The notes beneath the pieces are model-generated. The model was given only the letters and a program-made list of their open reading frames with translations, ran no database searches and was not told the DNA's origin. From an uncultured bacterium (GTDB taxonomy: Bacteria; Oederibacteriota; PGYV01; CAWJRG01): 64,000 nt of DNA. The stretch is from positions 64,001-128,000 of the forward strand of contig CAWJRG010000001.1 of NCBI GenBank assembly GCA_963845185.1. The letters are read 5' to 3'. The translations under genes and the position numbers were made by a program. Below are positions 30,261 to 32,545 of the stretch, piece after piece. Each line of letters begins with the position of its first letter. Within the stretch, counting starts at the first letter, position 1.

Positions 30261-31015
30261 AATTCTTAAAAATATTATTACAGATTAAGTTTACAAATTT
30301 ATTCATAATTTGTCAAAAAGTTGTGTGTTCATTTTGAACAAAATATTTTTATATCCCCCGATAAGATTTGATTTATGAAAGTTCACTTTTTTTAGCTATA
30401 ATCCTTCTTACAGTCATTATAGATGTATCTGCTTTTTTTGCTAGTTCATTGTAAATCACCATTGTTTTGTAATTCGGATGCGCTTTTTTGATTTTTTTGT
30501 AGCAATATATAGATCATCTTTTTATGATTTTTTATAATTTCAAGTATTTCATCAATATCAAGTAATCCATAAAATGACTTTTTAATTTTGCTTTGGATAT
30601 GTTTTTCAGTGATTGAGGAAAAATTTGGATTTGTAATCATACGCAACCTTCCGAAATCTTCCCCTGTGCTTCTTTTAACGGAAAAAATAAAACCATAAAA
30701 TCACTTCCCATTTGCAGTGTCTATGCGTTATTTTTTCGCAAGGCGCGTGATATTACCCCAAAATTTTACTTCATTTGTATTCCCTTAAAGTCTATTAAGG
30801 TATACAATAAAAAATCCGTTTTGTAAAGGAAATTCCTAAATATTTGATTTTTTATTTAACGGGGGTTTGTAACGGACTTTTATTTAATATCTCAAATGTT
30901 ATTAACAATAATGTTTATAGCAGATTAAGAATTAAAAACTGTCCGCGCATGTCTTATGCGAGCCCCTGACTACTCTCTGTAAAAACAAAAAATGCAAGGA
31001 ATAAATCCCCGCTTA

Positions 31016-31130
31016 ACGGGACTAGGTCACCTCGCCGCTACCCGCGGCTCCTCGACCCCGGGTAATCGCTTTCGTTCGCCTCAGTCTCACTTTTCCTCCT
31101 GTTCGTCGGCGCGATTACCCTTCGAGTCCC
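31016..31130 (-). repeat. tRNA-Asp-linked structured repeat
   Basis: ACGGGACT (Asp T-arm copy) .. shared core .. TTCGAGTCCC (inverted T-arm). Confidence 0.7.
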
Positions 31131-31189
31131 TGACTACTCATTATAAATGCAAAAGCCCTCAGGGATAAACCCTAAAGGCTTTGCATTTA

Positions 31190-31268
31190 TGGCGGGGTTG
31201 ACGGGACTCGAACCCGCGACATCCTGCGTGACAGGCAGGCACTCTAACCAAAACTGAGTTACAACCCC
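31190..31268 (-). tRNA. tRNA-Asp (GTC)
   Basis: Cloverleaf GGGGTTG..CTGTCAC..GTTCGAGTCCC..CAACCCCGCCA. Confidence 0.95.
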
Positions 31269-31346
31269 AATATAATTTCTATTACCTTGCTCTACTATTC
31301 AACTTTCTACTATCAACTTTCTCCAAAATTTTGCTCTGCAAAATTT

Positions 31347-31475
31347 TGGAGTGGGAGACGGGGCTTGACTACTCCGCCCTTACTTCAGGGCTGCGCAGTC
31401 CCACCTCGCTCACTTCCACTCGGCTCCGCCTCGTTCTTCCTCGCTTTTCGCTCGGCGTTCGTTCGCTTCAAGCCC
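31347..31475 (-). repeat. tRNA-Gly-linked structured repeat
   Basis: Copy of the Gly 3' end (TGGAGTGGGAGACGGGGCTTGA), core, inverted T-arm TTCAAGCCC. Confidence 0.75.
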
Positions 31476-31497
31476 TAAAATCATATTATAATTTCTC

Positions 31498-31572
31498 TGG
31501 AGCGGGAGACGGGGCTTGAACCCGCGGCATCCAGCTTGGAAGGCTAGCGCTCTACCACTGAGCTACTCCCGC
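31498..31572 (-). tRNA. tRNA-Gly (TCC)
   Basis: GCGGGAG..CTTCCAA..GTTCAAGCCCC..CTCCCGCTCCA. Confidence 0.95.
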
Positions 31573-31619
31573 TTGTTTATTTTACAATATCCATTATTAA
31601 AATCTTTTTAAAGACCAAT

Positions 31620-31893
31620 GCGCGAGACGGGGCTTGGTCACCTCGCGCCTACCCGGCGCTCCTCGACCCCCTCGCCTGCCTTTCGCTCGCTCCTGCTCGC
31701 TTTTCATCCACAGGATGCGGCAGGCTCGCATTAGGCTAAATACAGCCTAATCCCGCGGCATCCAGCTTGGAAGGCTAGTGCTCTGAGATGTTGTGCGAGT
31801 ATTACGAGCACTCGAAAATCAATGCTTATCGTCATCTCATCTTGTCCGCCGCAGCTCAAAGAGCTATGGCGGACTCCACTGAGCTACACCCGC
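31620..31893 (-). pseudogene. tRNA-Gly(TCC) copy interrupted in the T-loop (about 31637-31751) and D-loop (31785-31875)
   Basis: Three segments match tRNA-Gly 31498..31572; acceptor stem mismatched and CCA absent. Confidence 0.8.
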
Positions 31894-31944
31894 CCGCAAT
31901 AAATTATTTCCCAATTCTTTTTAATTGTCAATGAAAATGAGTCC

Positions 31945-32019
31945 TGGAGCTGGCGAGTGGACTCGAACCACCGACCGTCCGCTTACAAGGCGGATGCTCC
32001 ACCACTGAGCTACGCCAGC
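31945..32019 (-). tRNA. tRNA-Thr (TGT)
   Basis: Anticodon arm TCCGC-CTTGTAA-GCGGA; CCA end. Confidence 0.95.
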
Positions 32020-32082
32020 ATCCTTTATCTACTTTCAAATTTCTATTATCCACTCTCTGATTTTTGCCTTAGGCAAAAATTC

Positions 32083-32161
32083 TGGTGGGCGCTACTGGGA
32101 TCGAACCAGTGACCTCCTGCTTGTAAGGCAGGCGCTCTAACCAAAACTGAGCTAAGCGCCC
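32083..32161 (-). tRNA. tRNA-Val (TAC)
   Basis: Anticodon arm CCTGC-CTTACAA-GCAGG; CCA end. Confidence 0.95.
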
Positions 32162-32166
32162 TGATG

Positions 32167-32545
32167 CTTCATTATATATTTTTTGCCTTCGGCAAAAATA
32201 TGGTGGGGAGAGAAGGATTTGGCTACTCCGCTGCTACCCGCAGCTGCGCAGCCCCTCCTCGTCCGCCTTCCGCTCGCTCCTGCTCGCTTTTCATCCACAG
32301 GATGCGGCGGACTCGTTTCGAATCCTTTACTTCATTATATAATTTTTGCCTGTGGCAAAAATATGGTGGGGAGAGAAGGATTTGGCTACTCCGCTGCTAC
32401 CCGCAGCTGCGCAGCCCCTCCTCGTCCGCCTTCCGCTCGCTCCTGCTCGCTTTTCATCTACAGGATGCGGCGGACTCGTTTCGAATCCTTTACTTCATTA
32501 TATAATTTTTGCCTGTGGCAAAAATATGGTGGGGAGAGAAGGATT
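32167..32545 (-). repeat. 163-bp tandem repeat containing the tRNA-Tyr 3' end
   Basis: TGGTGGGGAGAGAAGGATT at 32201, 32364 and 32527; units almost identical. Confidence 0.92.

Follow-up and report, generated by a model that had tools for sequence, protein, structure and literature searches.

Repeat units in a tRNA gene cluster

The window, i.e., the whole stretch of 64,000 nt of DNA analyzed here (contig CAWJRG010000001.1, positions 64,001 to 128,000, from an uncultured bacterium of the Oederibacteriota), carries the minus-strand tRNA genes Tyr-Val-Thr-Gly-Asp, preceded upstream by cysS and by the gene for an RNA methyltransferase of the SpoU type. Between and after these tRNA genes lie GC-rich units of 123 to 132 nt, each with a structured core and with arms that copy the 3′ part of the neighboring tRNA gene (Table 1). 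Units of this kind recur behind tRNA and tmRNA genes throughout the source genome, in some of its relatives and in several distant phyla, with the core shared and the arms local.

Two units follow tRNA-Tyr as a tandem repeat (D1) with a 163-nt period and 98% identity according to a repeat finder, and one unit each follows tRNA-Gly and tRNA-Asp. A further core sits in the T-loop of a decayed tRNA-Gly paralog. A reading of the sequence alone had described inverted copies of the T-arm (TTCGAATCCTT, TTCAAGCCC and TTCGAGTCCC), and all three are present as described. It had also noted that the cores share blocks, and the repeat finder returned such blocks: D5 (62 nt) is common to the pseudo-Gly core and both Tyr units at 89 to 90% identity, and D6 (44 nt) is common to the Asp unit and the pseudo-Gly core at 86%. 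The Tyr and Gly units end in the acceptor strand plus CCA, the 3′ arm agreeing with tRNA positions 57 to 76 at 19 of 20 nt (Tyr-A and Gly units). The Asp unit has lost this ending, with only 12 of 20 nt in agreement; here the T-loop/T-stem part is kept (8 of 9 nt) and the acceptor part has decayed to 4 of 11. An Rfam scan of the window returned the five tRNAs only, with the cores unmatched even at E ≤ 10, and promoter and terminator signals across the window were no more frequent than in shuffled sequences.

Table 1. Features of the tRNA cluster, in window coordinates
Feature	Position	Strand	Evidence
tRNA-Tyr(GTA); 3′ end copied in the next two units	32527..32613	−	ARAGORN; RF00005, 61.3 bits
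Unit Tyr-A; 5′ arm AAGGATTCGAA, core subtype X1, 3′ arm AAATCCTTCTCTCCCCACCA	32364..32491	−	R1, 122.2 bits
Unit Tyr-B; tandem copy of Tyr-A	32201..32328	−	R1, 122.8 bits
tRNA-Val(TAC); no unit behind it in the source genome	32083..32161	−	ARAGORN
tRNA-Thr(TGT); no unit behind it here	31945..32019	−	ARAGORN
Decayed tRNA-Gly(TCC) paralog, class B; exon parts recognizable	31610..31893	−	Sequence
Unit core in the T-loop of the decayed tRNA-Gly	31616..31741	−	R1, 92.2 bits
tRNA-Gly(TCC), intact	31498..31572	−	ARAGORN; Rfam
Unit Gly; 5′ arm AGGGCTTGAA, core subtype X2 with tandem-G·A hairpin	31347..31478	−	R1, 121.8 bits
tRNA-Asp(GTC)	31190..31268	−	ARAGORN; Rfam
Unit Asp; older copy	31010..31132	−	R1, 93.4 bits
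Partial repeat of the stretch before unit Asp (GAGTAGTCAGGGRCTCG plus AT-rich tract); probably left over from another copy	30955..31008	−	Direct repeat D9, 50 nt, 72%

Anatomy and fold of the unit

Read on the tRNA strand, a unit consists of a 5′ arm, a core of ~90 to 110 nt and a 3′ arm. The 5′ arm is the reverse complement of the T-loop and the T-stem 3′ strand of the neighboring tRNA (positions 54 to ~65); it reads TTGAA where the T-loop reads TTCAA and is therefore a true inverted copy, not a direct one. The 3′ arm corresponds to tRNA positions 57 to 76, i.e., the 3′ half of the T-loop, the 3′ strands of the T-stem and acceptor stem, the discriminator base and CCA. Pairing of the 5′ arm (complement of 54 to 65) with positions 57 to 65 of the 3′ arm forms stem P1, which closes a conserved core of ~105 nt. 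The core is a three-way junction of P1, P2 and P4, in which an unpaired GAA is followed by P2, a purine-rich joint and hairpin P4, the last abutting position 57. Inside P2 lie the invariant hairpin CCGAGC[GNNNA]GCGAGG, an A-rich linker and a variable hairpin, P3; in a second core subtype (Tyr, Arg-ACG, Leu, Met and pseudo-Gly) the two inner hairpins stand in reversed order.

The stems are compensated across phyla. Specifically, in 50 cross-phylum sequences P2, P2a and P3 gave a covariation score of 0.349 versus at most 0.093 with slid partners, and 190 double-change cells versus 43 to 65; the observed score was reached by none of 500 shuffles. For the whole structure of our covariance model R1, 90.8% of the cells among 76 matches were paired, with a score of 0.334 versus at most 0.046, in an alignment that was itself fitted to the model. 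The core motif is invariant at 17 of 23 positions in 50 multi-phylum sequences, the search pattern itself having fixed 19.

The invariant hairpin holds two non-Watson-Crick G·A pairs, and a 5′-GA/3′-AG tandem recurs in P2; tandem G·A pairs are stable sheared pairs. At four P2 positions, G·A or A·G occurs in 20 to 26 of the 50 sequences and Watson-Crick pairs in the others. On the opposite strand these G·A pairs become pyrimidine mismatches, and the fold therefore belongs to the tRNA-sense strand. Predicted folding energies differ accordingly between sense and opposite strands for Tyr-B (−61.6 kcal/mol, z −4.66, versus −49.6, z −1.88) and for the Gly unit (−55.1, z −3.86, versus −43.6, z −1.30); the Asp unit, whose P2 is wholly Watson-Crick, shows no such difference. 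The fold exists on the tRNA-sense strand only.

Linkage, tailoring and decay in the source genome

The source genome (G000; 3.50 Mb, 11 contigs, 99.4% complete) has 46 tRNA genes and one tmRNA gene. Among public sequencing runs, no RNA run is listed as containing this DNA, and two DNA runs contain it in small shares. The likeness among the units is not due to chance. Searching the whole genome with an nhmmer profile of the unit gave 19 matches, comprising 17 full copies (E ≤ 7e−8) and two fragments (E 7.3). All 19 share the strand of their neighbor, which is a tRNA gene no more than 67 nt away, the tmRNA gene ahead of them or another unit; no copy was found in this search away from such genes or units. 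The structured family that the sequence-only reading had proposed, tied to a break in the T-loop and tailored to the neighboring tRNA, is supported, with the tmRNA gene as a further host. Copies were not scattered through the genome and no Rfam family fell on the cores, so that neither of the outcomes named as refuting that reading fully applies; taken as a whole, the reading is partly supported.

Thirteen of the full copies lie 18 to 67 nt behind a gene or a preceding unit, their hosts being Tyr (twice), Gly-TCC, Asp, Ser-GGA, Arg-ACG, Asn, Leu-CAG, a Met, Ser-TGA, Arg-TCT and tmRNA (twice). The remaining four have no 5′ arm and sit in the T-loops of decayed paralogs of Gly-TCC, Ser-GCT, Ser-GGA and His, each directly upstream of the intact gene. 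Since these cores lie within the T-loops of redundant paralogs, the core can enter an otherwise complete tRNA gene.

Tailoring is uneven along the 3′ arm. Among the 13 units behind genes, seven match the last 20 nt of their tRNA at 18 or more positions. The part facing positions 57 to 65 agrees at 7 to 9 of 9 nt in 12 units out of 13; an indel puts the Arg-ACG row out of register. Positions 66 to 76 are perfect or nearly so in both Tyr units and in Gly, Leu, Ser-TGA, Arg-TCT and Met, and are down to 3 to 8 of 11 nt in five units (Asp, Asn, Ser-GGA and both tmRNA copies). Judged by sequence, the former would be young copies and those with a decayed acceptor part older ones. That 5 of the 13 keep the stem-forming part although their acceptor/CCA part has decayed speaks against selection on the CCA end itself.

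The spacers to the left of the units were also considered as decayed tRNA 5′ halves, which can be rejected for the source genome: in 10 spacers, alignment to the cognate tRNA was never 1 standard deviation or more above the shuffle mean and was at or below that mean in eight. A resemblance of this kind was seen by eye only, in the Thr unit of the related genome G016. A recurrent AGTAAAG upstream of units was likewise discarded as part of the element, as it occurs at only 5 of 111 units, two of which are tandem copies. At tRNA-Arg(TCT) (C10:143120-143373), the gene ends in ...GGGCGCGC-AT with an incomplete CCA, while the unit behind it keeps ...GGGCGCGCCA; the unit thus seems to preserve an older state of the gene end.

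Filled and empty sites in related genomes

Of 41 genomes belonging to the same order or phylum (source genome included), R1 matched 16 and gave no match in the other 25, the copies per genome ranging from 0 to 17. A same-strand tRNA gene lies directly upstream at 20 of 24 loci from the relatives, counting one intron-bearing tRNA-Asn; the other four comprise a contig end, a tRNA-like fragment and two units of genome G004 that follow the last bases of a tRNA-Asn. Within one genus, three genomes have 11, 8 and 2 units, at largely different tRNAs. The Thr-TGT and Val-TAC sites are each filled in G016 and empty in G018 and G004, and the Pro-CGG site is filled in G018 and empty in G004 and G016. The latter is filled in one of the four genomes of that family, and the sister genome G011 has 38 nt between its two Pro genes. 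The tRNA-Thr(TGT) gene of the window, which is followed by no unit, has its ortholog in G016, where a unit does follow.

Compared base by base, the three pairs of filled and empty sites have exact borders and direct repeats of 32 to 41 nt. A filled site starts with the tRNA including CCA, its trailer, at some sites a further spacer, the 5′ arm and the core; it ends with tRNA positions 57/58 to 76, the same trailer again and then the continuation of the empty site. The difference between filled and empty is thus the core plus a second copy of the last 19 to 20 nt of the tRNA and a trailer of 12 to 21 nt. The direct repeat measures 32 nt at Pro and 41 nt at Thr, of which 12 and 21 nt, respectively, lie beyond CCA; elsewhere it spans a whole intrinsic terminator. 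Because the repeats run past CCA, the duplicated piece derives from DNA or a precursor transcript and not from mature tRNA. Units come and go between congeneric genomes.

The tRNA-Asn(GTT) gene of G016 (L033:1756-1975) was missed by ARAGORN because a group I intron interrupts it in the anticodon loop (RF00028, 86.5 bits). The two G004 units (L041/L051, G004:C8:105413-107417) are separated by 1.7 kb that include a gene, and no intact tRNA accompanies them; the first is preceded only by the last ~5 nt of tRNA-Asn and a terminator, an arrangement which suggests that the tRNA-Asn gene was broken by rearrangement. Decayed tRNA-Ser(GCT) paralogs upstream of the intact gene in G003 (L053:760-1360) and G017 (L035:1850-2130) carry D-loop and T-loop inserts at once, with an additional anticodon-loop insert in G003 only, and resemble the multi-intron tRNA genes of archaea. 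Their D-loop inserts are alike and match no Rfam family.

Distribution across phyla

An exact scan of one genome per GTDB species for the 23-nt core motif (19 fixed bases) yielded at least 117 stretches, among which 80 loci were used for the cross-phylum counts. R1 matched 68 of the 80, with 76 matches in all. Among the 66 near-full-length matches listed, 44 have a same-strand tRNA gene 8 to 166 nt upstream within the 260-nt flank, and the 3′ arm equals the last 20 nt of that tRNA at 18 or more positions in 36 of these 44 and is identical in 23. Two further units, in a Deltaproteobacteria and a Treponema record, follow tmRNA genes. According to the record titles, carriers include Planctomycetia, Omnitrophota, Spirochaetota, Deltaproteobacteria/Deferrimicrobiaceae, Elusimicrobia, Firestonebacteria, FCPU426 and Nitrospira, along with single contigs each from Actinomycetota, Bacteroidota and Cyanobacteria; we count the groups with several loci as firm carriers and the single-contig ones not. 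In an Rfam scan of 15 cross-phylum loci, only tRNA and tmRNA exceeded the threshold.

Carriage on phages or plasmids was considered and discarded, as blastn gave no match in phage and plasmid collections; the core motif itself occurs in one stretch among 2.9 million viral contigs. At L105 (Omnitrophota) and L120 (Elusimicrobia), the same unit sequence stands behind tRNA-Met in both records, and its 5′ arm, TCGCGATTCGAA, does not complement the T-stem of the neighboring tRNA; judging from the sequence, this arm may have been brought from another tRNA.

A literature search found neither the core nor TLR-like elements (tRNA-linked repeats, see below) outside the enterobacteria described in the portions available of its sources, which included PMC8144298, 10.1101/2024.07.17.603846, PMC5217627, PMC6429828 and PMC9897764. 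What appears to be undescribed is this particular core with its fold and its breadth, its association with tmRNA, the paralogs interrupted in the T-loop and the evidence from filled and empty sites.

Relation to known systems

The closest likeness is to the TLRs of E. coli, which include the tyrT 178-bp repeats with rtT RNA (family RtT, RF00391) and which the sequence-only reading had aptly named as the analog. [quoted passage not shown] As in the present family, the E. coli units lie co-oriented behind a tRNA gene (in E. coli also 5S), their last 18 to 20 nt equal the 3′ end of the gene, the trailer is often repeated and tandem arrays occur. A 5′ segment of the E. coli units, ...GGGGAAGGAT (...GGAT), is antisense to ATCCTTCCCC (ATCC...) at the start of the 3′ arm, and the GCGAG-rich core has, by eye, a CUCGAGC[GCCA]GCGAGAG hairpin of the same CGAGC-loop-GCGAG kind as ours. 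One E. coli family serves Tyr, Pro, Lys/Val, Ser and Arg tRNAs: in K-12, RF00391 is found in 18 places (13 over the cut-off), behind tyrT/V, a Pro tRNA, a Lys/Val cluster, Ser and Arg tRNAs and rrnD. What the sequence-only reading had held to be new, namely one core adapting to several different tRNAs, is therefore already a property of the E. coli repeats. The present family differs in its longer core with a three-way junction, its tmRNA sites, its T-loop copies and its occurrence in many phyla.

By covariance models, homology to the E. coli TLRs was not established. The RF00391 model gave no match in the source genome at E ≤ 10, R1 met the E. coli units through the arms only (7 bits), and the core-only model R2 reached at best 15.4 bits (E 0.009) with the hairpin unaligned. 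By analogy, the family of the window would work like a TLR, and we file it apart from RtT.

P3 and P4 loops reading A(N)GGA (CAGGGAUG, ACAGGAUGU), which resemble CsrA sites, occur at L139, L165, L149, L093, L106 and other loci of Deltaproteobacteria and Spirochaete records, and one Deltaproteobacteria unit matches PrrB/RsmZ weakly (29 bits, below the cut-off). In those lineages, such loops may provide a link to the CsrA binding of E. coli RrA/B/F; this does not extend to the lineage of the window. CsrA (PF02599) was not found in G000, G002, G003, G016 or G018. A role as CsrA sponge was rejected on this ground, with A(N)GGA loops in other lineages only.

Attachment-site (att) fragments of genomic islands (Islander; available part of PMC4383910) are similar in that the gene is left intact, a direct repeat of its 3′ part from the T-loop lies downstream, and both tRNA and tmRNA genes are used. 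They differ in that our units have no island or integrase between the repeats and hold there instead a shared structured core and an inverted copy of the target. Repetitive extragenic palindromes (REP/REPIN) and palindrome-associated transposable elements (PATE) derived from IS200/IS605 are likewise small, gene-less and multi-copy, with strand-specific hairpins and compensated stems, but they need a Y1 HUH transposase (RAYT/TnpA), which was not found in the source genome, and they neither copy the target into their arms nor duplicate 30 to 50 nt of it. Compared by eye with integron attC sites, the arms look tRNA-derived and do not follow the attC consensus, RYYYAAC/GTTRRRY.

Search for a mobilizing enzyme

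The Y1 transposase (PF01797) had no match in the source genome, in which the controls matched, and TnpB (PF07282) had one, at 19.3 bits and below the cut-off. Rfam scans of the window and 15 cross-phylum loci showed no HEARO or other omega-RNA family. A reading of the units as IS200/IS605 PATE or omega-RNA was rejected, with no Y1 transposase and no TnpB over the cut-off in the source genome. A reverse transcriptase domain (RVT_1) was not found in the relatives G003, G016, G018 and G002, which have 15, 11, 8 and 6 units, respectively. An origin by reverse transcription was rejected, given these four multi-copy relatives without reverse transcriptase and repeats that include the trailer. Of the partner enzymes for which the sequence-only reading had suggested a search, the transposase was not found in the source genome and the reverse transcriptase not in the four multi-copy relatives.

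Six open reading frames (ORFs) on contigs C9, C10 and C11 of the source genome have identical RVT_1 matches of 142.1 bits each (e.g., C9:700695-701384). They probably represent a multi-copy group II intron, and no link to the units was seen.

Origin and spread of the units

Three things have to be explained: the break falls always in the T-loop, both arms are local with one of them inverted, and the core alone is shared. We favor, with middling confidence, a widespread family of tRNA-linked structured repeats in which each unit is an enzyme-less module spread by recombination. The core, with no enzyme that it could call its own, would pass as DNA from one tRNA or tmRNA gene to another, most likely by recombination or template switching at a single-stranded T-arm hairpin, with the target copied into both arms. 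The template switch might take place at a stalled fork; alternatively, a host recombinase might exchange strands on a folded single strand, the form that CTX-type phages use with the host Xer. Either option would copy the core from another unit and copy the tRNA 3′ end and trailer anew. Quasi-palindrome correction would then keep the left arm of the core complementary. Its transcription into a stable hairpin RNA would be passive, driven by read-through from the tRNA operon, and after insertion the closing stem would be kept while the acceptor/CCA tail decays.

Several points weigh against this explanation. No insertion event, intermediate or enzyme has been observed. The presence and absence of units could also result from deletion between the direct repeats, the direction being argued by parsimony only, at one site. 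A functional RNA would account no less well than a selfish element for the compensated stems and for the loop and junction nucleotides that are invariant across phyla, and there is no mechanistic account of how complementarity to a new target arises in the left arm. R1 includes P1, so that copies with a decayed stem score lower, which may inflate the apparent retention of the stem. The cross-phylum sample was chosen with the motif of one core subtype, and the labels of metagenome-assembled genomes can be wrong, as illustrated by a short "Cyanobacteria" contig that is near-identical to a unit of G016.

The alternative that comes next, possible but clearly less probable, is a functional small RNA family produced from tRNA operons, whose copies arose by ordinary duplication. 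Transcripts reading through past the terminator would be trimmed to a stable RNA by tRNA-processing nucleases, aided by P1 and the tRNA-like 3′ end, and the tandem-G·A hairpin and the A-rich junction would bind a protein or another RNA. This agrees with the 17 of 23 motif positions that are invariant across phyla (19 fixed by the pattern), with the compensated stems and strand-specific fold, and with the closing stem kept in old copies. Moreover, an intrinsic terminator flanks several of the units in two copies, much as T1 and T2 flank E. coli rrB, and RrA/B/F undergo processing and in vitro bind both Hfq and CsrA (rrB and RrA/B/F from PMC8144298). However, the number of copies ranges from 0 to 17 among the relatives, with none in 25 of 41, and the sites differ within a genus; four copies interrupt tRNA paralogs and the tRNA-like tail decays. 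The one function proposed for the E. coli TLRs cannot apply here, as no CsrA gene was found in the source genome or the multi-copy relatives. A functional RNA and a mobile module are not mutually exclusive.

It is unlikely that the units are miniature integrative elements or their scars, i.e., attP-like cassettes that carry no genes and are moved, with crossover in the T-loop, by a tyrosine recombinase from elsewhere. The models would be genomic islands that enter tRNA and tmRNA genes, and CTX-type phages that use host Xer on a folded strand. The layout of an intact tRNA, an insert and a displaced 3′ fragment from the T-loop with some trailer is as expected for integration (cf. Islander, in the accessible part of PMC4383910); tmRNA genes are used in the source genome and in two other phyla, tandem arrays occur, and the inverted arms could fold one strand into a duplex mimic of the T-arm. 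Yet only 105 to 165 nt without an ORF lie between the repeats, and no integrase is nearby, the neighbors in the window being cysS, the SpoU methylase and a type IX secretion system (T9SS) protein. One core serves 12 or more different tRNAs in a single genome, which would demand a recombinase indifferent to the sequence of the stem, and the core was absent from phage and plasmid collections and present once in 2.9 million viral contigs.

Least probable, and in our view improbable, is an account without any mobility, in which ancient local duplications of tRNA 3′ ends had their cores homogenized by gene conversion or concerted evolution: the mosaics of shared blocks, and the tandem arrays and direct repeats that favor unequal crossing-over, are in its favor, but it is at odds with the clean borders of filled and empty sites between congeners, the same core in distant phyla, the cores within T-loops of paralogs and the 10 source-genome spacers without trace of a tRNA 5′ half.

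Beyond the favored reading of an enzyme-less module spread by recombination, two bolder proposals can be put forward only tentatively. The units might form a so far overlooked pan-bacterial class of enzyme-less mobile RNA/DNA modules with target-templated arms, which would enter tRNA and tmRNA genes in the T-loop region, make their closing stem out of the target and extend over at least a handful of phyla, with the E. coli TLRs as a divergent branch; or the invariant tandem-G·A three-way junction might be a new functional RNA of stable-RNA operons, as a ribozyme or with a protein partner.

Significance

The tRNA-linked repeats of E. coli, reportedly first described in 1978, are still without an accepted origin or function. 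The same design with a different, strongly conserved core now appears in records labeled Planctomycetota, Omnitrophota, Spirochaetota, "Deltaproteobacteria" and several candidate phyla. Its defined fold, datable gains and losses and copies caught in T-loops provide comparative material with which the nature of such elements can be settled. If the units do move without an enzyme of their own, DNA has a means of spreading that is new; should they be functional RNAs instead, Rfam lacks a widespread family. In practical terms, the units give rise to tRNA-like fragments and interrupted pseudo-tRNAs that mislead tRNA annotation as well as island finders, both of which rely on displaced tRNA fragments.

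Other features of the window

The decayed tRNA-Gly paralog lies upstream of the intact tRNA-Gly gene, has two mismatches in the acceptor stem and lacks CCA. Its D-loop holds an 88-nt hairpin-rich insert (31788-31875, minus strand), which was considered as a second repeat family and rejected, being single-copy in the source genome. Just upstream of the paralog lies a promoter-like TTGACA-17-AATAAT (11 of 12 nt; 31931-31903, minus strand). The intact tRNA-Gly is preceded by a diverged copy of this promoter region, and promoter and gene were therefore duplicated together. The tRNA cluster is adjoined by the gene for a 2155-aa protein (23793-30260, minus strand), in which eight NHL repeats are accompanied by other beta-propeller domains and, at the C terminus, a T9SS sorting domain.

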